IMG/VR virus record: IMGVR_UViG_3300028591_000119
Span: 58,279 to 122,278 of that record
Origin: a virus
Taxonomy: Duplodnaviria > Caudoviricetes
DNA length: 64,000 nt
Strand: one strand, 5' to 3'
In this document: positions 696-64,000 of the stretch, piece by piece
Layout of the letters: each line of letters starts with the position of its first letter
How positions within the stretch are numbered: the first letter of the stretch is position 1
Position numbers and translations under genes: made by a program
The notes under the pieces: model-generated
The model's input: only the letters and a program-made list of their open reading frames with translations
Database searches by the model: none
What the model was told of the DNA's origin: nothing

Positions 696-2945
696 TTAAA
701 AACCGACCATATTCATAAATTTATTAAGATTATCGTTTTCATTATATGAATCAAATAAACCGAATGCTTCAGCTGTTTTATAAACAGTTGTCATCAATCT
801 TGATTTCCATTCAATGTTTTTCTTTTCTTCATTAGATAATGAAACTCCGTTAATCCCATCTTCACAACCATGAGCCATGATAGATTCTTTACTCATTGTT
901 ATGATAAATTTCTCATATGGAGTAGGAACAACATCTGTAACGTCTTCCTGGTTAGTAATTGCTTTGATAATAGTCATTTCGTCATCGTTGAGTTCACGAC
1001 ACCAAAGCTTTTCAAACTTATCCTTAACACGTTTAACTACAGTTTCATTGATTTCAATGTTACTCTTATCACCAATATTTTCTTCCCAAACTTTAATCTT
1101 ATAGTCCGTTATGAAATTAGGTGAAATTGCTTTCTGGAAATTCATCTTACTGAGATCAATAATACCATATGCTTCTTTCTTAACATTTTCATCATTATAA
1201 TTAAGCATGTTATGATAGAATACATTTTCACGACTTTCAAGATCGTTAACTATTGTTGTATCAGGATTATCTTTTCTATCACAGTATTGACGCAATTGAA
1301 CTATATCAAATGCGTTAGAATATACATTTTCTTTCGATGTATATGGTCTAACTGTAGGTGATACGTGTTTACGATGATAAACGAATCTTTCGATAATGTT
1401 TCTAGCAATAGCGAAAGTATTTTCGTTTGCACGAATAAGTCCTTGCGGAGTTAATCCGATATCATTCAATGTCTTAGTATACATATCTGCGTTAGATAAA
1501 GATTCAGCAATAACTGCTCCATATCTATTTATCTTTTCATTGATAATGCTCTGAGATTCCTCAGATATACCGTGTGCCTGTTTAGTAGCAAGTTTTAATC
1601 CGTCTAAACGAATTTTCATTTCAGCTTTAACGTCACCTACTGCATTTACACATTCTGAAGACAACGTATTAACATCTGGAAGTTCCATAGCTTCAAATGT
1701 TCTAGGATGTAAAGGAATACGTTTTTCAGATAAACTTCTAGCATTGTAGAGATTAAGATTTTCTTTACCAAGATTAGCGCCATTGATATTGATAGTAATT
1801 CCACCAGAATTGCTATTGTTGTTTCCTGGAGCTCCAGAGTCAGTTGTTCCTCCTTCGCCAGAATCCATACCCATATCGTCTGTAGCACCCATATCATCTG
1901 TTCCAGTGCCATCGTCTAATCCATCGGTACCATCATCTGTACCCATATCAGAAGTATCGTCACCTGTATCTTCTATTCCAGTATCATCAGTTGTTACATC
2001 TTCGGCATTTTCGCCTACTTCAGAAGAATCAATTTGACCGCCAGCACCATTGTCTTTTCCAACATCACCGTTATCAACAATACCGTCATCTCCACCTATA
2101 GATGGATCTGCTGGAGCATCAGTATTTTCATCTGTACTCGTATCATTGTCACCAGTGAATGTTTGGTCTGAACCAAGACCATCGTCTGTATCGTATAATT
2201 GTTCATCGTCCTGATTTTCATCAGTATTTCCAGCTAATCCATCGTCACTAGTATCTGCTAATGTATCTTCAGGATTAATTCCAGTTCCATCATCCGTTCC
2301 GTTTTCATCTGGTGGATTATCAGGATCTTGATACTGATCATCAGGAGGAGCTATTTCATTCTTGTAATCTATTATTTCTTGTGTAGTACCTTCAACTAAT
2401 TCATTTTTAGCTTCAGTTTCTTCAATAGCATCTTTAACGTCGTTCTTGATGCGTTCGATAACATCATCCACAGCTTCAATAGACATAAGATATTTCATAT
2501 CTTGTGTAAAACGTTTAGAAATATCCTGATTCTCAAAAGATTTAGTATCCGCAAAAGCATTTTCACATGCTATATTTAAAGACACGTGATCCTGATTTAC
2601 TTTACCTAATCTAATTCGATTGATCAACTTCTGCTGTCTATAATCAGACTCTAAAGATACTGACTCAGAAATACTATTAACCATAGAAGTAAATAGATTA
2701 CCTGTATCAAATTGTCCAACGTGACCGAACGAATCAACCATATTCTTAGATATATCACTCAATACAGTCGTGAATTTATCTTTAAATTCTGGATTATCTA
2801 TCTTTTCACGTTCACCTTCTTTTAAAGGAATAGACTTTGTGACTATATTTCTGAAACAGTCATTTATCAAATTCTCTTTAAAAGCTTTTTCGAAAGCAGT
2901 TTTAGTTGCTTCTATTTTAGATATACTGTTGGCGTTTAAATCCAT
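696..2945 (-). CDS. Hypothetical protein, probably virion/head-associated, with long Asp/Gly/Thr-rich low-complexity linker
   Basis: 749-aa ORF, GGAG SD, late-type promoter motif at 2978-2989, several S/G-x-E motifs (SLES, SIEA, SKES). Confidence 0.6.
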   Translation of the reverse strand: MDLNANSISKIEATKTAFEKAFKENLINDCFRNIVTKSIPLKEGEREKIDNPEFKDKFTTVLSDISKNMVDSFGHVGQFDTGNLFTSMVNSISESVSLESDYRQQKLINRIRLGKVNQDHVSLNIACENAFADTKSFENQDISKRFTQDMKYLMSIEAVDDVIERIKNDVKDAIEETEAKNELVEGTTQEIIDYKNEIAPPDDQYQDPDNPPDENGTDDGTGINPEDTLADTSDDGLAGNTDENQDDEQLYDTDDGLGSDQTFTGDNDTSTDENTDAPADPSIGGDDGIVDNGDVGKDNGAGGQIDSSEVGENAEDVTTDDTGIEDTGDDTSDMGTDDGTDGLDDGTGTDDMGATDDMGMDSGEGGTTDSGAPGNNNSNSGGITININGANLGKENLNLYNARSLSEKRIPLHPRTFEAMELPDVNTLSSECVNAVGDVKAEMKIRLDGLKLATKQAHGISEESQSIINEKINRYGAVIAESLSNADMYTKTLNDIGLTPQGLIRANENTFAIARNIIERFVYHRKHVSPTVRPYTSKENVYSNAFDIVQLRQYCDRKDNPDTTIVNDLESRENVFYHNMLNYNDENVKKEAYGIIDLSKMNFQKAISPNFITDYKIKVWEENIGDKSNIEINETVVKRVKDKFEKLWCRELNDDEMTIIKAITNQEDVTDVVPTPYEKFIITMSKESIMAHGCEDGINGVSLSNEEKKNIEWKSRLMTTVYKTAEAFGLFDSYNENDNLNKFMNMVGF

Positions 2946-2977
2946 ATTAAACTCCTATTAATTGTATAAATTTTAAT

Positions 2978-2989
2978 CATAATAATGTT
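2978..2989 (-). promoter_or_regulatory. Late/middle-type phage promoter AACA-N6-TG
   Basis: AACATTATTATG on - strand about 30 nt upstream of the 2945 start; the motif recurs upstream of about 12 genes. Confidence 0.65.
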
Positions 2990-3042
2990 TTATTAGGAAA
3001 AAAATAAAAAATAACTAGGAGACTGTTCTCCCAGTTATTTAT

Positions 3043-3234
3043 CTAACAATGAACAACAGTACCGGGTTTTATACCATCTTTTTCATTCTGCTTTAACAAA
3101 TTTAAAGCAGTCTCAAATGTTGAACCTTGTTCAACTGCCAATTTAGCTGCTTCTGCTACCTGTTGTTTTGTAAATTTCTTCCGAATTTTTTTCGGAAGTT
3201 TATCATATAAGTCCATAAATTTCTTATCTGTCAT
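3043..3234 (-). CDS. Small hypothetical protein (early-type promoter)
   Basis: 63-aa ORF, GGAGG SD, TATATTAT at 3257-3264. Confidence 0.7.
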   Translation of the reverse strand: MTDKKFMDLYDKLPKKIRKKFTKQQVAEAAKLAVEQGSTFETALNLLKQNEKDGIKPGTVVHC

Positions 3235-3290
3235 ATATAGACCTCCTATCAGTAGTATAATATAAACATGAAATATTGATTATATTAAAT

Positions 3291-5225
3291 TTACATATCG
3301 ATTTTGCCACTGATTGATTGATCGAATTGTATATTGTTTCTAGCATAATCTTTAAGTTTATTGGTGACGTTATTAAAATTAACAAAATTTGACAACGGAA
3401 GCTTACCGTCTAATTTTATTTCTTCATCAGTTTCAATATAAACACAGTTATCAGATACTTGTTTGTGCATTATCTTTGATAATACACCATTATGTTCAGG
3501 ATCGGCATATATACCAACATTTCGTAGTTTTGAAGGATCTATCTTATAAATATATAATTTTTCACCACCTAAAAGTTGAGTTAGTATATTTTCAGAATCA
3601 ATACTATCGATGCCTATTTTATTAACGAATCGTTTAAAAAACATCTTATTATAGATCCTTATAAATTCATATATTCCTTCATCAGATATAGGGAATCCAT
3701 TTTTCATAGCTGGATATTTGGCTGCATATATTCTGAGTTTATTTCCTTTGGTTATAATGCTCTGACCTAAATCACCTTGACCTCCCATTCCTTCACTATT
3801 ACCTATAGTAGGGCTTATCTCTGTTAGATTACTTGAATATGATGTGTGATACAATGTTTGTATATTACTCATATCTATTTTCTTTCTATTATCAACTACT
3901 ATCTGACAAGTTATAAAGATATCGCCGTTTCCTTCATATCCTGCTGAGAAATTATACATTGTCAATGCGGTATTGTTATTTATTTTACCTGTAAACATTT
4001 TGAGTTTATTACTTTTCTTCATAAAGATATCTAAGAATTCACCATACAAAGTATTCATATCTCTATTCGTTACAGTCGATTTATTACCAGCATTAAAGTA
4101 TGATATTAATTTATCAACTATTTCTCTCAAGCGTTTATATTCGTCATCTGTAAAAGTGTTTTTACTTAACAATACTTTACGTAAATCTATACAATATGTA
4201 TCAAGATAACGTTTAACTGATACTCCTTTAACATACTCACCAACGCCAGCATCATCACCCAATATTCGAACATCGGCTTCTACGATTCTCGTAAGTTCAA
4301 CGTATATTCTCACAATAGAACTAATATATCCTGTAACCAATGATGAATATAAACCTATTATCTTTTGTTGATGTTTCATGATATTAGTTTCTCTATCAAC
4401 AACGCCATTATTTAATTCTGATATACATTTATCAAGTTTTCCGCCAATATCGTTTCCTAATTTAGATATTTGATCTAATTGTTTTATTCCTTTAAAATTC
4501 GAAATACATAATTTCACGTTAGTGTAAGTATTGCTATCGGTTGCTTCAACAAACAATTTTTGTTTCATAGCTTGTAAACTAGATATATATTCGCGCACAT
4601 CTGATTCATTTAATCCGTCAGATATAGCTTTAGTTATTAATTCACTAGACGTCTGTATATAATTTAAATTATTTTCTATATTAGCACAATTCGGTACACT
4701 CTTAATTCCCTCAAATACAGCATATTGATTAATATTTCCAATATCTATAACAGATTGAATTACCTTTCCATTACCTAATAAATATCGTACACCTATATTA
4801 GTCTTCGACGACGGATTTATTAAATCATTTTTTATATTATCCGAATTCTGTTTGATAAAATTGTTGAATTTATTATTCTTTTGGTTTATCACATCAGGCG
4901 AAACATTTTCATCTATTTGTATATCTTTAATTTGATGTTTGTTAAACAATATTCCAAATATACGCTTGATAAATCCAATGAATTTATTAAATGCTCTCAC
5001 AACTGCATCTTTTAATCGTTTAAAAAAATCAATTATTTTTTGTATAAAAGTCTTTTGATTATTTTGTTCATCAACGACTGATTCGGCACTCAATGTCATT
5101 GCTTCTTGTTGTATAATATTAAGCGCTTCTTGTGATTTATTGTAATCCATAACATGATCTATCAGTTCTTTCTTATCGTTTTTTATTTCAATAGTTGTAC
5201 CTTTGACAGATATTTTTACATTCAT
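3291..5225 (-). CDS. Putative internal head (injected) protein with possible C-terminal ADP-ribosyltransferase-like domain
   Basis: SQEA/SAES cleavage-like motifs followed by amphipathic helix FIQKIIDFFKRLKDAVVRAFNKFIGFIKRIF, typical of phiKZ-like head protein paralogs; C-terminal LYHTS...ISPT...RIY...YIYKI...DPEH pattern. Confidence 0.55.
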   Translation of the reverse strand: MNVKISVKGTTIEIKNDKKELIDHVMDYNKSQEALNIIQQEAMTLSAESVVDEQNNQKTFIQKIIDFFKRLKDAVVRAFNKFIGFIKRIFGILFNKHQIKDIQIDENVSPDVINQKNNKFNNFIKQNSDNIKNDLINPSSKTNIGVRYLLGNGKVIQSVIDIGNINQYAVFEGIKSVPNCANIENNLNYIQTSSELITKAISDGLNESDVREYISSLQAMKQKLFVEATDSNTYTNVKLCISNFKGIKQLDQISKLGNDIGGKLDKCISELNNGVVDRETNIMKHQQKIIGLYSSLVTGYISSIVRIYVELTRIVEADVRILGDDAGVGEYVKGVSVKRYLDTYCIDLRKVLLSKNTFTDDEYKRLREIVDKLISYFNAGNKSTVTNRDMNTLYGEFLDIFMKKSNKLKMFTGKINNNTALTMYNFSAGYEGNGDIFITCQIVVDNRKKIDMSNIQTLYHTSYSSNLTEISPTIGNSEGMGGQGDLGQSIITKGNKLRIYAAKYPAMKNGFPISDEGIYEFIRIYNKMFFKRFVNKIGIDSIDSENILTQLLGGEKLYIYKIDPSKLRNVGIYADPEHNGVLSKIMHKQVSDNCVYIETDEEIKLDGKLPLSNFVNFNNVTNKLKDYARNNIQFDQSISGKIDM

Positions 5226-5284
5226 ATTTTTCCTCGTAGTTTTTGAAATTACCCCCCCCCGATATGATGGGGAGAGGGATAAAT

Positions 5285-8200
5285 TTATAATACCATTATA
5301 GAAATATTAGGTACAAATTTAACATCATTATTTGTCAAATCCGAATTAGTTTCATCTATTACATTCTGAATACAAAGATATTCATTATCTATATTTTCTT
5401 CTAATGAATCTTCTTTATATATAGTTTGACATTCTGTAGATTCGTAATTATTCAAACCATAATATTCAAAATATAATATAGATGGAACGTTTTGTTTAAT
5501 ATTATCTAGCATAGCATTAATGTTAAATTCTAGGGATTTATTATCTGTTTGTATATTCTTAACATAATCAATTATCTCTGTCTTAATTGTTTCTATCAAG
5601 AATTCGGTGTTCTTCTCAGTAATATTATCTTCAAATTTTACACCTAATCTCAAACTGATAGCTAATGAATCAAGATATTGTTTCTCATAGGTTTTATTAT
5701 TTTGAAAATAATAATATTTACTTTCACCTGAAGTAGTTTTAAGACCCAGATATAGATTACCGTCATCTACGAATATATCATCCATAGCTGCAATTTTATC
5801 TATTAATTGATTATAAGATTTTAATACATTAAAGAAATTACTAGGAATAGCAAATGCTCTAGAGAAAGCAGGAATGTCATTTAATAAACAAATCTGTTTA
5901 GAATCTTCTTTAATAACAGGCTTTCCGTTAGAATCCATTATTATATCGTTCTTGCGATATTTATAAGTGATATTTCCGGTTTTACCACCAAAGTAGATAA
6001 CGTTATTACCATTCTTTGAATCGTAAGAACAGCATGAAATAGTATTTTTAATGAAATCTCCTTCAGAAGTAATACCGCCGGATTGGCTATTATATGGTTC
6101 CCACGCGTTTGTGATAGTTTCATAATTTGATATTCGTCCATTATCACCACAGAACAATATAGTTGTTCCATAAGCCATAACTGCAAAAATATCTGCTCCA
6201 TCCATGTACTTTCCATCAGAGCATAAACCACCACCAGCATTATAATTATTCCACTGATTTTTAATGATGTTATAACTAGCCACATATCCATTTCTACCTG
6301 CTTGGATAAAATTACTTCCAGATATTTCACATGAATACATAGTTTTATTGTCTACAACATTACCGTCATTAAGCAATGTAACTTCACCAGTAGTTAAATC
6401 GACTACAGAAGATACACCATCAATACCTGTAAGGTAAATACTGTTCTCAAGATATTTTGCTGAAGATAATATTGCTCGATATCCTCTATCAGAACCGTCT
6501 GAGAAAATATTCTCACGACTTCTAGTTCCAATATCAGAGTCAAAGTTACGCCAACCAGCATATCCTTCATCAAGTGACAATGAACAGATTCTACCTGCTC
6601 CACCAGCAAATAACAAATATTGCTTTTCTGAAGTAGTACCGTTAGGAGAAACAGTAGTGACGGTATAGTCTTGACATGTATACAATGCGTTATACTCGTT
6701 ACTTCCATTATTGATACATCTACCGTTACTATAATATACTGTAACTCCACCTGAGTTATCTTGATTACTTCCGTCGAACTTATTCCAAGTATTAGTTGCT
6801 AATTTACAACAAACCAAACGACCCATATCGCCGAATGCTAAAAGAATCTGATATTTAACATCATTTACAACTCGTTCGATAATTTTAAGACCACGAATTG
6901 CACATTTCTTAGTTACACCATCTGTAGGATCCATGTACGAACCGAGCAACGTGTCACCTTTTATAACATAACCAGAAGAATCACCAACATCAGGATCTCT
7001 AAAGTTTTTCTTATTAGTTCCACTACTAGCTTCATTATAAGGATGCCATTTATTGTATTTTATATCATAACAACCGATGCGTCCATCGTCGCCAGCAAAA
7101 ATTACAAGGTTATTCCATTCGACTATCGCATGTATAGCCACGCCACCTAAAACATTTCCAGCATCATAAATACCTGTTTCAGTAGCTTCATTAGACCATT
7201 TCCAAGAATTAGCCGAGTTAGCGTTATATGTACCAACTCTACCATCAAGTTCCTTCTTGATATCTCCGGCATAATGTAATGGAGTATATCTATTTCCAGA
7301 AGACAATGAACCGTCTGGTAATTCTGTTGTTACAGCAGAAATTTCGTATGTACCATCATCTTTAGTTTTATAAACATTTTCGGTATATACATCTGGAATA
7401 TCAGAATCAGCAGTTTGATAAACTGGCTGTGTTAATTTTAAGTCAGATACAATATTTATTTCTTCAGTCATATTTCTAGATAAAACTATATCTGAACAGC
7501 TGTAAATTATTCCTACATAATATTTATTATTCTGCTCATATGCAGTAAGGTATTGTTTGTATTCTTGAGGCACGGAACCATCTGTATTAGATTTGAATAA
7601 TACGACTACGTCTATATCTATTACATTATCTACATAATAGAATCCATATTGTACTTTTGAATAAGGAATTTCGTTCAAAGTGTTATTGTCTATACATATC
7701 TTATCATCATCTAATACACTACTATTAGTATGCATATTAGTTATACAATGGATTACATTATTTGATTCTTTATCGAATTCACAGTCATCTAAAGAAATAT
7801 TTCTAGCATAAATACTTCCATCAGATTTATTTTTCAATAAAATTCTAAATTTAACATATTCTTCATCAGATGACACTTTTTCTTTAATAGATTTAAGATG
7901 TTCATATATGAAATCGCTAACATATACATCAAATGCTAATCTATAATAATCTTTTTCATATGAATCTTCGGCAATAAGATTTGATGAAATTGGGTTTCTA
8001 TAAATCATCAAATTAGTTATACTTGCCTTATCATATATTTCATCTGATACATAAGTGAATTGTGTTGATTTTGTCTCATCAATACTTTCATCATATACAT
8101 TAACATCGAGTGAATCACCATTCTTTATTTTTATGAAATATGGGAATATATATTGCTCTTTAGTCAAATCTTTCTTATATTCATTGTAATATGTGTTATA

Positions 8201-9598
8201 TACGGAAAGAGTTTTATCGTTGAGTAATTTATATATCTTACTCTCTTTATCATATGTGAAAGCATTGCTCGGTGTTATCATTCTTGAATTTGTTTCTGTG
8301 TTAACTGGTATTTCATCAAATGAAAAATATCCATCAATGGTTTTAGATGGAATAATGTAACCGTTTTCCACATTGGTCAAGAATGAAGAAAGTACATATT
8401 CTAGAGCATATAAATCGTGTCGTTTTTTAAACGGTGAAAATCCTCGTTTATTAGCTACAGATTTAATTGTTGCTGGAGTAATTACTTCGCCATTACCAGA
8501 TTGTATTACTAAACTGCGAATACCTTCTATATCAAGCGAATTTTTACCACCTACAGATTCATTTGAAATAATTGAACATGTTGGTATTATCTGAAGCAAA
8601 GCGTATTGTGATGCGTCTGCTACATTCTGATTAAATAACATGTTCATATCTTGTGAAGTATTTTTATCAATTTGACCCAAAGTATAATTTCCATCTTCAC
8701 CAGCAGTAGTATAAGTTATTATCTTGATAACCCCATTAGTAGGATTGAATGCGTCTGGTAATTTTGAAAATTTAAATTTAATACTATTATTGTTTCCTGT
8801 ATTTCCTAATGTGTAACATAAACCATCGGTATAAATTTCACCCTCAAGATAACAATTCACTTTAGTAAAAGTATTAGAACTTTGAGATTTGTATAATACC
8901 ACAAATCCCATAAGTTTATCTGAATATTGAACAAGTATATCTTTAGGTTCACCTGTCATATCAAAAGTATCGATTTTACGATTAAATTGTTTAATGTTTA
9001 AATACATAGAAAACATTTGTTTTCCATTTATAACAACATCGTTTCGAGAATTGATATAAGGATTATTGATAGATAAAATATTACCAGATTCAAGATCATC
9101 CGTATCATACATTGCATACGTAGAATATGATATTTTACCTTCATTATTGTATTTAGTTGTAAAAATATCGATATTATAATCAAGGGTGAACGGAGGATTA
9201 TTTCCGATAAGAAATATTGTATTTTTATTTAATGTAAGTTTATATTTACCATCACTCTGAATAACAGATTTTTGTATAATATCGTCTATAGGATATGAAA
9301 CTACTATTTGTGTATTACTAGGGGTACCATAAATAGAAGCTAAATCCTCAGACTTTAAATTTCTCAACAATGACTTTGCTAAAATAGCAGTTGATGGAGT
9401 CAATTCACGTTTAGCCATAAGCATTGAGAAATTCGAAAAAGCAGATATTTTACCTAATGTACTTGCAAGTAATTTGTTGAAACTACTAGGTGCTTCATTA
9501 AGTTTTTCATCAGGTTTTAATACCCATTCTTCGAGATTATTTATAAATTCTAATGCAGAACTTTGTATACTCGTTTTATTAATATCATTCCAACTCAT
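5285..9598 (-). CDS. Baseplate wedge protein (T4 gp6-like) with inserted beta-propeller
   Basis: Motifs ELTPSTAILAKS, YTTAGEDGN, GGKNSLDIEGIR resemble gp6/baseplate J; seven G-x-x-G-R/Y...W..YN/FD repeats; ATG at 9598 has a GAAGG SD and is preferred over TTG 9613. Confidence 0.7.
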   Translation of the reverse strand: MSWNDINKTSIQSSALEFINNLEEWVLKPDEKLNEAPSSFNKLLASTLGKISAFSNFSMLMAKRELTPSTAILAKSLLRNLKSEDLASIYGTPSNTQIVVSYPIDDIIQKSVIQSDGKYKLTLNKNTIFLIGNNPPFTLDYNIDIFTTKYNNEGKISYSTYAMYDTDDLESGNILSINNPYINSRNDVVINGKQMFSMYLNIKQFNRKIDTFDMTGEPKDILVQYSDKLMGFVVLYKSQSSNTFTKVNCYLEGEIYTDGLCYTLGNTGNNNSIKFKFSKLPDAFNPTNGVIKIITYTTAGEDGNYTLGQIDKNTSQDMNMLFNQNVADASQYALLQIIPTCSIISNESVGGKNSLDIEGIRSLVIQSGNGEVITPATIKSVANKRGFSPFKKRHDLYALEYVLSSFLTNVENGYIIPSKTIDGYFSFDEIPVNTETNSRMITPSNAFTYDKESKIYKLLNDKTLSVYNTYYNEYKKDLTKEQYIFPYFIKIKNGDSLDVNVYDESIDETKSTQFTYVSDEIYDKASITNLMIYRNPISSNLIAEDSYEKDYYRLAFDVYVSDFIYEHLKSIKEKVSSDEEYVKFRILLKNKSDGSIYARNISLDDCEFDKESNNVIHCITNMHTNSSVLDDDKICIDNNTLNEIPYSKVQYGFYYVDNVIDIDVVVLFKSNTDGSVPQEYKQYLTAYEQNNKYYVGIIYSCSDIVLSRNMTEEINIVSDLKLTQPVYQTADSDIPDVYTENVYKTKDDGTYEISAVTTELPDGSLSSGNRYTPLHYAGDIKKELDGRVGTYNANSANSWKWSNEATETGIYDAGNVLGGVAIHAIVEWNNLVIFAGDDGRIGCYDIKYNKWHPYNEASSGTNKKNFRDPDVGDSSGYVIKGDTLLGSYMDPTDGVTKKCAIRGLKIIERVVNDVKYQILLAFGDMGRLVCCKLATNTWNKFDGSNQDNSGGVTVYYSNGRCINNGSNEYNALYTCQDYTVTTVSPNGTTSEKQYLLFAGGAGRICSLSLDEGYAGWRNFDSDIGTRSRENIFSDGSDRGYRAILSSAKYLENSIYLTGIDGVSSVVDLTTGEVTLLNDGNVVDNKTMYSCEISGSNFIQAGRNGYVASYNIIKNQWNNYNAGGGLCSDGKYMDGADIFAVMAYGTTILFCGDNGRISNYETITNAWEPYNSQSGGITSEGDFIKNTISCCSYDSKNGNNVIYFGGKTGNITYKYRKNDIIMDSNGKPVIKEDSKQICLLNDIPAFSRAFAIPSNFFNVLKSYNQLIDKIAAMDDIFVDDGNLYLGLKTTSGESKYYYFQNNKTYEKQYLDSLAISLRLGVKFEDNITEKNTEFLIETIKTEIIDYVKNIQTDNKSLEFNINAMLDNIKQNVPSILYFEYYGLNNYESTECQTIYKEDSLEENIDNEYLCIQNVIDETNSDLTNNDVKFVPNISIMVL

Positions 9599-53316: not shown

Positions 53317-54546
53317 TTATTCTTCAGAATCAACGAGCTTCAATATAGCATTTACATCCAACGCATTTGCTGAATTTGCTTCTTTTATTGCCCGCTTATT
53401 TTCCTTAGCCAAAGCACTGTCATAAGATTGACCGATTTTTGACTTATCAGAACGTTCCTGTGCTTCTGACTTTCTACGAAGATCAGATACGACGTTCTGA
53501 CTTTCTTTGAGAGTTGGTTCAGGAACATTAAATCCTGAGTACATAACGAATCCGTATGCACTCAATGATTCTGACGAACTAGGATAAACTCCTTTAAAAG
53601 AGTTATCTGAGATTGTAATGCCAAGTGTTTTAGACATAGCATTTACAACTTTCACTTCATCCTCAGAGCATTCAAATGCTCCGCGGTTAACCAATTCGCC
53701 TTTCGGAAGTACAAATGGTGAGCTAAAAGCTCCATCTCTTAAACGTGCAAGTGCACGCATTTTTGGCGTACATGAAATGACGTATCTGTCCTCAAAGTCA
53801 AGGTTAGTATCGTTACCTAAGTATTCGATACACTCGTATCGATAAAGAAGTTCGGCTACTTCTTTATCCACAATAAGAGCTTTCTCTTCAGGAGTTGTTT
53901 TGTCTGTAACACCTTCGACAGCGTCAGCTGATGAAAGATCAGCAATATACAATGAGATACCTTTAGCATCTACGATGTTGCTGAATTCCTTAAGACATTC
54001 GGAGTAGTTTTCCCACTCTTCCTGTGCATTACTTAACGCAGGTTTAAACATGATTACCTCTACAGGTATCTTACGTTTAGCAATGCCTTTTATTCCTTCA
54101 GTGAAGGTTGGCTGCGACAAGATTGCTGATACAGTTGGACCTGCTCCTGAACCAAGTCCACCACCAGATGATACAAATACAAAGATCTTATCTGTTTTAG
54201 GATTGATCTTACTTTGTAATTCTGGCAACCATATGTTCATTCCCTGGATAGCATCGTTTTTTGCTTTATCACGGTTCTTTCCGCATCCAAACGAGCTATC
54301 ATTGATATTGATGTGATTTCTCACATCAACTAATTTTGCTGATGTGAGATCCGTCTTGTAGTTCATTACAAAACAATTTTCTGGGAGTACGAATGGTTTA
54401 TCGAGCATTGCTCGCATTCCATTATAACCTCCCTGACCAATCGAGATACAAGTGATTACTGGTTTGCGGGTCATTACGCGCTGACTTTCATCTATCTCAT
54501 ATTTTGGCCCTGAGATTGTGATAGGTGTATTCTGTTGTTCTGGCAT
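53317..54546 (-). CDS. Tubulin/FtsZ-family GTPase (PhuZ/TubZ-like)
   Basis: IGQGGYN, GCGKNR, signature GGGLGSG and T7-loop NLDFED. Confidence 0.9.
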   Translation of the reverse strand: MPEQQNTPITISGPKYEIDESQRVMTRKPVITCISIGQGGYNGMRAMLDKPFVLPENCFVMNYKTDLTSAKLVDVRNHININDSSFGCGKNRDKAKNDAIQGMNIWLPELQSKINPKTDKIFVFVSSGGGLGSGAGPTVSAILSQPTFTEGIKGIAKRKIPVEVIMFKPALSNAQEEWENYSECLKEFSNIVDAKGISLYIADLSSADAVEGVTDKTTPEEKALIVDKEVAELLYRYECIEYLGNDTNLDFEDRYVISCTPKMRALARLRDGAFSSPFVLPKGELVNRGAFECSEDEVKVVNAMSKTLGITISDNSFKGVYPSSSESLSAYGFVMYSGFNVPEPTLKESQNVVSDLRRKSEAQERSDKSKIGQSYDSALAKENKRAIKEANSANALDVNAILKLVDSEE

Positions 54547-58217: not shown

Positions 58218-58416
58218 GATTTTCTCCTTTTCTATTTATCATCAATATAACGTTTTCTAATTTATATTTTTATACTTGAAGATTTAACTTTATGATTAAC
58301 TATAATAGTCACTTCTTTTGTCATTATATTTTATACTCCTTTATTATAAATATAATATATCATCCATTTTATTATAAAAAATGTAAAACGAGGGAAAATC
58401 CCTCGTTTTATTTAAC

Positions 58417-59892: not shown

Positions 59893-60510
59893 TTAATCAG
59901 ATACTATCGGATGATGAGTTTGAACTGATTCAAACATTTTCTGAATTCGTTCGGTTTCAGCTTTTCTAAGACGAAGTTCACGTTCGTCTTCTGCTTTAAA
60001 ATCAATGTTCTTATAAGGATAACATAAACGCTGATATATTGCGTTTTCTACCTTACTAACAAACGGGTCGATTCTATAAGCAGGATCAGCATCATCGTAT
60101 TTTCCAGCACAATATCCAATAGAAGAAGTCTGATCACAGATAACCCTTACTGTAAGGTCTTTTCTTTGATCAAGATCAAATTCTACTATATCTCCCTGAT
60201 GTCTTCCCATAACGCATGGTAACGGAATAGCTTCAGGAAATATATGGACATTATATTCTTCGATAGGGGCTGGTGATGGAACTCCGACTTCGATAAAATT
60301 GACTCTAATCATCCACTCCATATCAGGGTCATAATGATCCTGTTGTTCGAGAGCAAATGCTCTAATCAATTTCTCTTCAGGTGTTAAAGAAGTTTCATCG
60401 TTCGGATTATAACAATCTTTACCACCAGTTCTTTCCATATGATCCCATCTGAGTCTAAAAATAGGACTTCCATTGATTGACATTCTGTACATTGGTTTTG
60501 TTTCTGCCAT
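59893..60510 (-). CDS. Hypothetical protein
   Basis: ATG 60510 with GGAGG SD; TATATTAT at 60531-60538. Confidence 0.7.
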   Translation of the reverse strand: MAETKPMYRMSINGSPIFRLRWDHMERTGGKDCYNPNDETSLTPEEKLIRAFALEQQDHYDPDMEWMIRVNFIEVGVPSPAPIEEYNVHIFPEAIPLPCVMGRHQGDIVEFDLDQRKDLTVRVICDQTSSIGYCAGKYDDADPAYRIDPFVSKVENAIYQRLCYPYKNIDFKAEDERELRLRKAETERIQKMFESVQTHHPIVSD

Positions 60511-60567: not shown

Positions 60568-60594
60568 AAAACCAGAGGCATTGCCTCTGGTTTT
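60568..60594 (-). terminator. Intrinsic terminator after the Cys-repeat gene
   Basis: AAAACCAGAGGCA-T-TGCCTCTGGTTTT. Confidence 0.8.
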
Positions 60595-60626: not shown

Positions 60627-63600
60627 TTACACGTTGTTTTTAACTGTAGGATATCCTGATCCAGTAGCATCTGGTCCTGAGAAATATCCTGCTTTCTTAG
60701 CAGTATCATTCTTATCAATTCTAGTATTACCAAATTTATTTTTAAGATTAAACTTAGCATAATAATCAGGATCAGTATTAACTGCGTTCGGTGTATTAGC
60801 AAATGGTTGATTATAAACTGTTTGAGTAGTTTGAGGATCATTCACTACGTGATCTGGCGCGGGATCTGCTGATACTGCTATAACAGGTAAATTTCTATAT
60901 GTAGATTTAGTAACCATACCGGTACAAGCTTCACCACATCCGTATTCACAAGATACAGAACAAGTTCCAATACAATTAGTATAACAACTTTGTCCACAAT
61001 CAAAATGACACGTACTATAACAACCAATTTTACAAGAAGTTGCACATGTAGAAGATTTACATGAACCCATACATCCACTCATACATTTATCTTTACAAGA
61101 CGTATTAGAGCATTCCGATGAACAAGTTACATCACAAGTGCCTTGGCATGATTTTCTACACGCTTCACCACACGTACTAGTTTTACAGTTTCCAGTACAA
61201 TCAGATGCACAAGTACCAGTACAAGCAGATTTACAATTTCCAGTACACTGTTGACCACAAGTTCCTTTACAACCTGCGTTAGAACATGTTCCAGTACATT
61301 GTAAACCACAATCACCAGAACAGTTGGCTCCAGCACAATTGCTAGAACAGTTGGTTTTACATGCAGCGCCAGTACAAACACTTCCTCCACACGTTCCTTT
61401 ACAATTAGCTGAACAAACTGATGAACATCCTGCTGATGCACAAGTACCAGTACAAGCAGATTTACATCCAACAGAACAGTTACTTGAGCAAGATTCTCCG
61501 GAACATGCGTTGTGACATTTATTAGTACAAGTACCAGTACTACATGTTCCTAAACATTTACCTGTACATCCTGCTGATGTACATACATTATAACATGCAT
61601 TACCTGAACAACTAGCACCACAAGTACCTTTACAACCTGAGGCATCACAACTTCCGGTACAAGCATTAGAACACGTTTTAGTACATCCACCAGCTGTACA
61701 TACTGTACTACAGTTGCTACTACCACAATATCCAGTACAAGCACTAGTACATAAATTTTTACAACCACTAGTGCAAGAAGTATCACAACTGGTTGCACAA
61801 GTTTGACTTTTACAATTAGATCCACTACATGTTCCACTACATTTACCTGCACAAACGGTTTCACAACCACCATAGCAAGTTTTACCAGAACAACTAGAAC
61901 CACAATATCCACTACAACCTGAAGCATCACAATTTCCAGTACAAGCATTAGAACACGTTTCAGTACATCCACTACTTGTACAATTTACGGCACAGCTACT
62001 ACTACCACAGTATCCACTACAAGCAGCACCAACAGCACACAAGCTATTACAAGCATCAATACAAGAAGTATCACAACCAGTTGCACAAGTTTGACTTTTA
62101 CAATTAGATCCACTACATGTTCCACTACATTTACCTGCACAAACGGTTTCACAACCACCGTAACAAGTTTTACCAGAACAACTAGAACCACAATATCCAC
62201 TACAATCTGCGTTAGAACATGTTCCAGTACAAGCTTTAGAACACGTTTCAGTACATCCATTACCTGTACATACTGTACTACAGTTGCTACTACCACAATA
62301 TCCAGTACAAGCACTAGTACATAAATTTTTACAACCACTAGTGCAAGAAGTACCACAACTGGTTGCACAAGTTTGACTTTTACAATTAGATCCACTACAT
62401 GTTCCACTACATTTACCTGCACAAACGGTTTCACAACCACCGTAACAAGTTTTACCAGAACAACTAGAACCACAATCACCAGTACAAGCCTCGTAACAAC
62501 TGCCTTTACATTCTAAAGCACATGTTCCACTACAACTGTCTTTACAATTAGCTGTTGAACAAGTATTTTTACAACCATCACCACAGTTTGATGTACAATC
62601 AGATGCACAATCTCCAGCACATGCTTTATGACATTTACTGTCACAACTTGTATTACATGTTCCAGTACAATTACCTGTACAAACGGTTTCACAACCACCA
62701 AAACAAGTTTTACCTGAACAGCTAGAACCACAATCCCCAGTACAAGCCTCGTAACAACTACCTTTACATTCATTAGAACATGTTCCGGTACAGGCGTCTT
62801 TACAGTTATCACTACAACCTGTTATACAATTATCACTGCATTGACCGACACAATCAGATGCACAGATTCCTGCACATGCTTTATGACATTTACTGTCACA
62901 ACTTGTATTACATCTTCCACCACAGCTTCCAGCACATTCATAACCACAAGAACTACGACAAGTTTTACTTACACAATTGGCTACACAGTTGTTAGTACAT
63001 CCGGAAGAAGAACATCTACCAGTACAACTACCATAACATAAACTAGAACAAATATTTTTACAGTCAACAGTTTCACATCCGTTCATACAGCCGCCGCAAT
63101 TAGTGGAACAGTTTTGTCCGCAACCAGCACCACAAGAGGCATATTGATTTCCGCCACACGAGCCGGTACAATTATCTTTTGAACATGTTCCAGAACAAGC
63201 GTTGTAACATTTTCCAGAACAACTACTTGAACAAGCGCCAAATCCACAGTTTACTCGACAATCACCAGTACATCCACTAGAACATGCACCATAACAATTA
63301 AATCCACACATGCCAGTACAAACATTTTCTATACAAGTTGCATCACAATTTGCTTTACATGCAGCACCAGTACAATTACTTCCTCCACACGTTCCTTTAC
63401 ACTTTGAAGCATCACAATTTCTAGTACAATCATTAGAACATGTTTCAGTACATCCTCCAGCCGTACATACTGTACTACAGTTATTACTACCACAATATCC
63501 TGTACAAGCACTAGTACACTCTTCTTTACAATCACCAGTACAAGTAGTACTACAACTGGCTGCACAAGTTTGACTTTTACAATCAGATCCACTACATGTT

Positions 63601-63998
63601 CCACTACATTTACTAGTACAAACGGTTTCACAACCACCATAGCAAGTTTTACCAGAACAACTAGAACCACAATCACCAGTACAACCTGAAGCATCACAAT
63701 TTCCGGTACAAGCATTAGAACACGTTTCAGTACATCCTCCTGATACACACGTTGTTTTACAGTCGCTACTACCACAATATCCACTACAACCATCAGTACA
63801 TAAATTTTTACAACCACTAGTGCAAGAAGTACTACAACTGGTTGCACAAGTTTTGTCTTTACAAGATGATCCACTACATGTTCCACTACATTTACCTGTA
63901 CAAACGGTTTCACAACCACCATAGCAAGTTTTACCAGAACAACTGCTGCCACAATCCCCAGTACAAGCGTCGTAACAACTATCTTCACAACCATTAGC
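60627..63998 (-). CDS. Giant Cys-x-x-x repeat protein (>1,120 aa), 5'-truncated by the window edge
   Basis: The frame of the 894-aa track ORF stays open upstream of Met 63311 to the window end (ANGCEDSCYDACTGDCGSSCSGKTC...); Cys every 4th-5th residue; Cys-free C-terminal tail of about 95 aa. Confidence 0.9.
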   Translation of the reverse strand, partial: ANGCEDSCYDACTGDCGSSCSGKTCYGGCETVCTGKCSGTCSGSSCKDKTCATSCSTSCTSGCKNLCTDGCSGYCGSSDCKTTCVSGGCTETCSNACTGNCDASGCTGDCGSSCSGKTCYGGCETVCTSKCSGTCSGSDCKSQTCAASCSTTCTGDCKEECTSACTGYCGSNNCSTVCTAGGCTETCSNDCTRNCDASKCKGTCGGSNCTGAACKANCDATCIENVCTGMCGFNCYGACSSGCTGDCRVNCGFGACSSSCSGKCYNACSGTCSKDNCTGSCGGNQYASCGAGCGQNCSTNCGGCMNGCETVDCKNICSSLCYGSCTGRCSSSGCTNNCVANCVSKTCRSSCGYECAGSCGGRCNTSCDSKCHKACAGICASDCVGQCSDNCITGCSDNCKDACTGTCSNECKGSCYEACTGDCGSSCSGKTCFGGCETVCTGNCTGTCNTSCDSKCHKACAGDCASDCTSNCGDGCKNTCSTANCKDSCSGTCALECKGSCYEACTGDCGSSCSGKTCYGGCETVCAGKCSGTCSGSNCKSQTCATSCGTSCTSGCKNLCTSACTGYCGSSNCSTVCTGNGCTETCSKACTGTCSNADCSGYCGSSCSGKTCYGGCETVCAGKCSGTCSGSNCKSQTCATGCDTSCIDACNSLCAVGAACSGYCGSSSCAVNCTSSGCTETCSNACTGNCDASGCSGYCGSSCSGKTCYGGCETVCAGKCSGTCSGSNCKSQTCATSCDTSCTSGCKNLCTSACTGYCGSSNCSTVCTAGGCTKTCSNACTGSCDASGCKGTCGASCSGNACYNVCTSAGCTGKCLGTCSTGTCTNKCHNACSGESCSSNCSVGCKSACTGTCASAGCSSVCSANCKGTCGGSVCTGAACKTNCSSNCAGANCSGDCGLQCTGTCSNAGCKGTCGQQCTGNCKSACTGTCASDCTGNCKTSTCGEACRKSCQGTCDVTCSSECSNTSCKDKCMSGCMGSCKSSTCATSCKIGCYSTCHFDCGQSCYTNCIGTCSVSCEYGCGEACTGMVTKSTYRNLPVIAVSADPAPDHVVNDPQTTQTVYNQPFANTPNAVNTDPDYYAKFNLKNKFGNTRIDKNDTAKKAGYFSGPDATGSGYPTVKNNV

Positions 63999-64000
63999 AC
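61600..64000. repeat. Coding tandem repeat of about 282 bp (94 aa) inside the Cys-rich gene
   Basis: Anchor TTTTACC(A/T)GAACA at 61880, 62168, 62450, 62708, 63647 and 63929 (spacings 288, 282, 258, gap, 282). Confidence 0.9.

Follow-up and report, generated by a model that had tools for sequence, protein, structure and literature searches.

The window analysed here, a 64,000-nucleotide stretch of the IMG/VR virus record IMGVR_UViG_3300028591_000119 (Duplodnaviria; Caudoviricetes; positions 58,279 to 122,278), ends on its right in a long minus-strand reading frame whose product is a ladder of cysteine (Cys) residues, mostly four or five positions apart, followed by a Cys-free tail. The source contig (G000:C1) is 122,278 bp long, has 30% GC and is rated 44% complete; its end coincides with the right window edge, at which the frame is still open. 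The visible part of this Cys-ladder gene, its internal repeats and the features around it are collected in Table 1.

Cys accounts for 23.6% of the 1,025-residue ladder core and for 21.5% of all 1,123 residues of the partial product. The steps from one Cys to the next comprise 186 of four residues (CxxxC), 52 of five (CxxxxC) and three others, and the positions between them are mostly filled by Ser, Gly, Thr, Ala, Asn and Lys. Neither Pro nor Trp occurs in the core, and charge is balanced across the product (70 Lys and Arg versus 72 Asp and Glu). Superimposed on the short steps is a higher-order unit of 94 amino acids (aa), detected as a 282-bp period in two arrays, and five cassettes of one type share 81–92% of their DNA sequence. 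The ladder closes with a distinct terminal block and a short junction motif, beyond which lies the tail, its conserved first half carrying an invariant P, D, Y, F-A, A-x-N and P. The other frames across the ladder region are broken, with open reading frames (ORFs) of at most 223 aa. An earlier note, made from the sequence of the window, had described a giant phage-encoded frame of more than 1,120 codons in which about one residue in four is Cys, built of CxxxC/CxxxxC units in repeats of roughly 94 aa, open at the window edge and ending in a Cys-free tail of about 95 aa. Each of these points is borne out by the counts given here, the tail measuring 98 residues, and by the origin of the contig in a virus collection.

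Table 1. Coordinates of the Cys-ladder gene, its parts and associated features (window positions unless the entry names G000, the whole record, or the locus of a relative)
Feature	Position	Strand	Remark
Cys-ladder gene, 3′ two thirds (1,123 codons and stop)	60627..63998	minus	frame runs off contig end
Ladder core, residues 1–1025 of partial product	60924..63998	minus	242 Cys
94-aa higher-order repeat array, 282-bp period, 2.0 copies, 84% matches	63405..63966	minus	Tandem Repeats Finder
94-aa higher-order repeat array, 282-bp period, 3.1 copies, 85% matches	61600..62487	minus	Tandem Repeats Finder
Terminal ladder block, residues 945–1025	60924..61166	minus	conserved in six orthologues
Junction motif T-G-M-V-T-K and 98-aa Cys-free tail	60630..60923	minus	first half conserved
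Intrinsic terminator, 12-bp stem with 6 G-C pairs, T run	60568..60594	minus	33 nt past ladder stop codon
Gene for 205-aa neighbour	59896..60510	minus	
Gene for 409-aa tubulin-like candidate	53317..54546	minus	
Promoter-like motif, all copies in record	G000 7403, 15689, 29060, 32747, 33178, 61267, 69346, 79696, 80394, 93965, 110573, 117187		
Promoter-like motif, last seven copies in window coordinates	2989, 11068, 21418, 22116, 35687, 52295, 58909		
Gene for 1,557-aa Flg_new-like protein	L023:2689-7362 (G000 2689-7362)	minus	
Ladder gene of relative L026	L026:6486-9131		coding part 6486-9128, 881 aa
Second copy of the last 534 codons of the L026 ladder gene	L026:10001-11605		identical
Leader palindrome in relatives	L028:9975-9990; L026:6434-6449		also in L034 and L035
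RNA-polymerase-beta-like gene of relative	L029:197-2524		775 aa
NrdD and NrdG genes of relative	L030:2074-5378		

The same locus is found on a 258,455-bp contig of the ENA assembly ERZ27256846, where the ladder gene is complete. Its full product has 1,697 aa, and it is separated from the 205-aa neighbour by an identical gap of 116 nt, so that 574 N-terminal residues lie beyond the end of the virus record. Exact copies of the 205-aa protein itself occur on that contig and on another, short contig from Logan. Among 1.84 billion representative proteins, a search with the ladder gave 240 matches at E ≤ 0.001, the two closest of which are short fragments cut by gene callers from longer frames. When the ENA contigs that carry them were re-read, one (L024) proved to hold an open ladder frame of 680 aa followed by an orthologue of the 205-aa gene, and the other (L025) an open ladder frame of 376 aa; on both, the gene callers had reported several short ORFs in wrong frames plus a small 3′ piece in place of the ladder gene. 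Public protein collections consequently contain such genes only as fragments, and the family is under-counted in them.

Comparison with these two orthologues gave ratios of non-synonymous to synonymous substitution rates (dN/dS) of 0.19–0.46, and 62 of 66 Cys columns were invariant versus 70 of 200 non-Cys ladder columns, which together indicate a protein-coding gene selected for the positions of its Cys residues. Frame and Cys are kept, under purifying selection, by orthologues on at least six other contigs. The Cys-ladder gene is thus a real, conserved phage gene. The earlier note had allowed that it might be an assembly artefact, and a repeat that stays open by chance without coding would be a related explanation: the sequence is made of repeats, the contig ends within the ladder, and the gene callers of other assemblies cut it into wrong-frame ORFs. 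Against this stand the entire 1,697-codon frame in an independent assembly, the constraint on frame and Cys in the orthologues, and repeat units that are not identical but differ from each other by 8–19% in DNA, and we regard an artefact as scarcely credible.

Complete but distant orthologues were found in four cases: P0013 (951 aa), P0152 (980 aa, at locus L028), P0151 (630 aa) and the 881-aa product of L026. All begin with a domain of about 165 residues that is 70–84% identical among them and has no match in Pfam or PHROGs, and a corresponding N-terminal domain is likely to occupy part of the window protein that lies off the contig. If the missing part does hold it, the full ladder would span about 1,430 residues with roughly 340 Cys. 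The ladders of the complete orthologues contain 92–117 Cys, compared with at least 242 in the partial window protein and at least 143 in L024, so that the window ladder exceeds theirs in length by a factor of two or more. This extra length comes largely from amplification of the 94-aa cassette; the three-copy array in particular is a lineage-specific amplification of one cassette, and the anchor motif of the cassette was not seen in the ladders of L024, L025 or the other relatives on visual reading, no search having been made for it. The last block of about 80 residues differs from the rest of the ladder in that all of its Cys are invariant and much of its remaining sequence is conserved. It leads into a junction, C-x-G-M-x-T-K, common to the complete orthologues, and into a C-terminal region that continues to about 290 aa in them, the first 50 residues of which align with the window tail. 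In L026, the final 534 codons of the ladder gene recur unchanged downstream of the full 881-aa gene, through a tandem duplication or else through an error of assembly.

The gene sits in a conserved order shared by this phage, the contig of P0013 and L028, which runs from a gene of 927 or 930 aa through small genes, a dUTPase, the ladder gene and further small genes to a type IIA topoisomerase (69% identity between this phage and L028) and, downstream of it, a tubulin-like gene of 407–409 aa. Upstream of the ladder locus, a relative encodes the anaerobic ribonucleotide reductase NrdD with its activase NrdG, from which the host of these phages can be taken as probably an anaerobe. The genome of the ladder-bearing phage is about 270 kb in size, which makes it a jumbo phage.

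Regulatory sequences provide a further line of evidence. In L028, L026, L034 and L035, the ladder gene is preceded by a shared block in which a T run is followed by GACATYATWATGA, matched at all 13 of 13 positions in each of the four. The 122 kb of the record contain 12 copies of this motif after a T run, against 3 ± 1.7 in first-order Markov simulations (13-mer, at most one mismatch), and 11 of the 12 copies sit 9–47 nt ahead of an ORF on the same strand. Eight large genes follow the motif, two of which match the PHROG category ‘virion structural protein’ and one ‘head maturation protease’, the remaining five having no PHROG match. Within the 50 kb read in a relative, the motif is found only twice, before the ladder gene and before one other gene, and not before the NrdD, NrdG, RNA-polymerase-beta-like, dUTPase or topoisomerase genes. 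From the three annotated genes, the motif is probably a late, virion-class promoter of this phage group. Together with the terminator that closely follows the ladder stop codon, its presence before the orthologues makes the ladder gene look like a single-gene transcription unit, which would be expressed late. The leader of the ladder gene in the relatives is unusually long (80–120 nt), and between the motif and the ribosome-binding site it holds a conserved palindrome, GTTAAAC-NN-GTTTAAT, which may act as an operator or as an RNA hairpin regulating the gene.

The protein most readily recalls the bacterial CXXX-repeat system, defined by genome context only, in which a target with a tandem repeat (TIGR04114, PF27846) or of the TIGR04117 type is accompanied by a radical SAM/SPASM maturase (TIGR04115) and an accessory protein (TIGR04116). 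Both have Cys at every fourth residue in tandem with small residues between, and TIGR04114 finds 19 matches in the ladder frame. These are weak (best 17.5 bits); the 20-bit cut-off is reached only when neighbouring matches are summed, and hmmscan with the whole protein lists nothing. The match is, moreover, nearly circular, since a model only 18 positions long that asks for a Cys at each fourth one will fit any such ladder. The TIGR04117 target model scores 15.4 bits at best against a cut-off of 50, and only in its repeat part, while the precomputed matches to PF27846 (‘tSAM_targ_Cxxx_rpt’) are absent for the 1,697-aa product, weak or faint in the orthologues and clear in the distant P0001. 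The resemblance to Cxxx-repeat targets that the earlier note had pointed out is therefore real, yet weak.

The ladder protein departs from that system in several respects. At 1,697 aa and an estimated 340 Cys it far exceeds a peptide-sized target, its family has folded-looking end domains, its relatives lack an N-terminal leader, one ladder step in five is CxxxxC, and no maturase or accessory gene was found in the readable part of the genome or beside any orthologue. The 122 kb of the record, 44% of the genome, contain no match to Radical_SAM (PF04055), SPASM, TIGR04115 or TIGR04116, which extends to the whole record what the earlier note had said of the window. Its further suggestion, that a radical SAM partner might lie upstream, finds no support: gene tables list no radical SAM protein for the 4.8 kb that precede the ladder on the ENA contig, nor for the flanks of L026 (21.6 kb) or P0013 (9 kb). 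Along the contig of a syntenic relative, gene tables covering 29.5–79.7 kb list a single radical SAM protein, of 164 aa, which stands beside NrdD and scores above the curated cut-off for NrdG; as a peptide maturase it was accordingly rejected. Wherever the flanks can be read, at the locus of this phage and at those of three relatives, the ladder gene has no adjoining maturase, which makes four orthologous loci in all.

Outside the ladder family, the best matches are giant proteins with List_Bact_rpt/Flg_new repeats (P0001 and P0003–P0007; E-values of 1e-33 to 1e-39), about 42% identical over 250–300 residues. They belong to phrog_6085, the only family matched by the window protein, to which no function is assigned. 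These giants are surface-repeat proteins of about 1,000 aa that end, at the C-terminus, in a ladder with a strict step of four, and their N-terminal parts resemble neither the N-terminal domain of the ladder family nor a 1,557-aa protein of this phage that has a faint Flg_new match of its own, so the similarity of the ladders may reflect compositional convergence. The 1,557-aa protein, with a long low-complexity stretch rich in Asn, Gly and Ser and a perfect copy of the promoter-like motif upstream of its gene, is a candidate fibre or adhesin of the phage. The idea that it and the ladder protein are the two halves of a split fibre-plus-ladder gene was dropped, as no homology links the 1,557-aa protein to the N-terminal part of P0001.

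Other Cys-repeat proteins compare less closely. Beetle antifreeze proteins have a Cys period of 12 residues, metallothioneins have CxC or CxxC motifs, and copper storage proteins are built of helices lined with CxxxC. The disulfide-laddered, beta-helical antifreeze proteins, the metallothioneins and the copper storage proteins share with the ladder the regular placing of Cys in a repeat rich in Thr, Ser and Gly, the thiols serving as structural elements or metal ligands, but all are more than ten times smaller, and the ladder matches neither solved structures nor Pfam families. A sequence search of the PDB gave no match for the ladder protein, and the ESM Atlas returned unnamed clusters only, with no usable structural match. 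Membership of the eukaryotic CysRRep group was likewise rejected: that module conserves Gly and Pro at set positions as far as position 31 or beyond and has no matches among virus proteins (Daugavet et al.; PMC7379824; bioRxiv 10.64898/2026.06.07.730663), whereas the ladder is free of Pro and has a four-residue period. No paper on TIGR04114/TIGR04115 or on CxxxC ladders in phages was found in the literature. What is already known is the repeat type itself, which is named in NCBIfam and Pfam as a radical SAM target and has not been studied experimentally; what is new is the size, an estimated 340 Cys in one chain, together with end domains peculiar to the family, the lineage of the phage, the place of the gene in the genome and the consistent lack of a neighbouring maturase.

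We tentatively favour the view that the product is a late, probably virion-borne rod cross-linked through its thiols, leaving the chemistry of the links open. The ladder protein would form an elongated shaft, as a fibre, whisker or decoration on the phage particle, with the N-terminal domain as its anchor and the C-terminal part as its free end; amplification of the 94-aa cassette would set the length of the shaft, and cross-links between its regularly placed thiols would keep the rod intact. Four features point this way: the head domain, junction and tail are conserved, the middle varies at least two-fold in length yet keeps its Cys register, the residues between are small and hydrophilic with no Pro, and the promoter class is one common to virion genes. 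The data establish the gene, the selection on it, its architecture and synteny, the promoter motif of the relatives and the terminator, whereas late timing in this phage, the virion location and the rod shape are what we infer. The virion appendage proposed in the earlier note thus gains indirect backing, in that orthologues carry the motif that precedes virion genes here, although the region upstream of the window gene lies off the contig.

A number of observations weigh against such a rod. No family of fibre, tail, capsid or decoration proteins is matched in Pfam, PHROGs or NCBIfam by the protein or by the N- and C-terminal domains of its relatives, and Foldseek found nothing at E ≤ 0.001 in BFVD or the PDB. 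AlphaFold2 models are of low confidence, with a predicted local distance difference test score (pLDDT) of 42 for the conserved ladder end and tail, the conserved block coming out helical at low confidence, and of 58 for the N-terminal domain of the relatives (predicted template modelling score, pTM, 0.56). The gene lies among genes of nucleotide and DNA metabolism, outside a head or tail module. The tie of the promoter-like motif to late or virion genes is made by three annotated genes, and, the upstream region of the window gene being off the contig, it reaches this gene through its orthologues only. As for the links, intracellular disulfide formation is improbable in an anaerobe, and no metal-binding family is matched. 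A homotrimer prediction of the last 179 residues scored 0.00 and was counted neither for nor against oligomerisation.

How the thiols would be joined divides the possibilities further. The ladder could be a giant substrate of a CXXX-repeat radical SAM/SPASM maturase, which would turn its Cys into thioether cross-links and be encoded elsewhere in the phage genome or by the host. A structural protein would then be modified in RiPP-like fashion, as the earlier note had put forward. The summed TIGR04114 matches, the PF27846 matches in orthologues and nearest ladder relatives, and a reducing, anoxic setting that favours enzyme-made links over disulfides all agree with this, and about 120–150 kb of the phage genome lie outside the part searched. 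Set against the near-circular repeat match, the low TIGR04117 score, the empty record and flanks (4.8, 9, 21.6 and 50 kb) and the identity of the one radical SAM protein of a relative as NrdG, this reading appears unlikely, if by no means far-fetched; should the enzyme be encoded in the other half of the genome, the ladder would be a far larger substrate than any so far proposed for an enzyme of this type. Since no maturase is linked to the ladder gene, we lean slightly towards metal-thiolate or disulfide cross-links over enzyme-made thioethers. The more specific proposal that follows, a maturase-free rod on a jumbo phage of an anaerobe, held by a metal-thiolate or disulfide ladder and tuned in length by its cassettes over an at least three-fold range, is a doubtful one, and if true it would give a type of fibre for which neither a structure nor a description exists so far. 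Should the protein be a virion rod, whatever its links, it would exemplify a novel design for a long and stiff appendage, stapled chemically under reducing conditions.

The protein might, on the other hand, remain inside the cell as a sink for thiols or metals, resembling a metallothionein or binding Fe-S, Zn or Cu, and serve metal sequestration, redox buffering or sulfur storage. A chain with over 240 thiols at short intervals, separated by small hydrophilic residues, would suit that role, as would metabolic neighbours (the dUTPase and topoisomerase, joined in a relative by the anaerobic ribonucleotide reductase), the lack of a match to any virion family, and the low-confidence helical model of the conserved block, which recalls copper storage proteins. 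A sink would, however, have no need of the conserved N-terminal domain, junction and C-terminal domain, and the promoter-like motif common to virion genes points to late co-expression with structural genes. Metallothioneins are small proteins with CxC and CxxC clusters, whereas this product has 1,697 aa and spacings of four and five, with no match to a metallothionein or copper-storage family in Pfam or NCBIfam; on geometric grounds, moreover, the mixture of four- and five-residue steps would take the Cys off a single helix face. We consider a sink improbable. Whatever probability remains belongs to functions that we have not thought of.

Beyond the ladder gene, the lineage shows several features of its own. 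The 409-aa protein of the window has a sub-threshold match to the Tubulin/FtsZ GTPase family (22.9 bits, cut-off 33), and its 407-aa orthologue in L028 an equally weak one, making it a candidate PhuZ/TubZ-like phage tubulin. A 775-aa gene in the upstream region of a relative resembles the beta subunit of RNA polymerase, which suggests a phage-encoded multisubunit RNA polymerase in the lineage; no RNA polymerase beta match occurs in the 122 kb of this phage. Close relatives are absent from GenBank phages, IMG/VR and GTDB genomes. IMG/VR holds two distant relatives of the topoisomerase, both without a ladder and without a radical SAM gene, and JGI metagenomes contain two short contigs of the L026-type lineage. 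The left end of the record (G000 position 1) also lies near a contig end in the ENA assembly, there on a separate contig of 14 kb, so that the break recurs in two assemblies, with a repeat as its possible cause.

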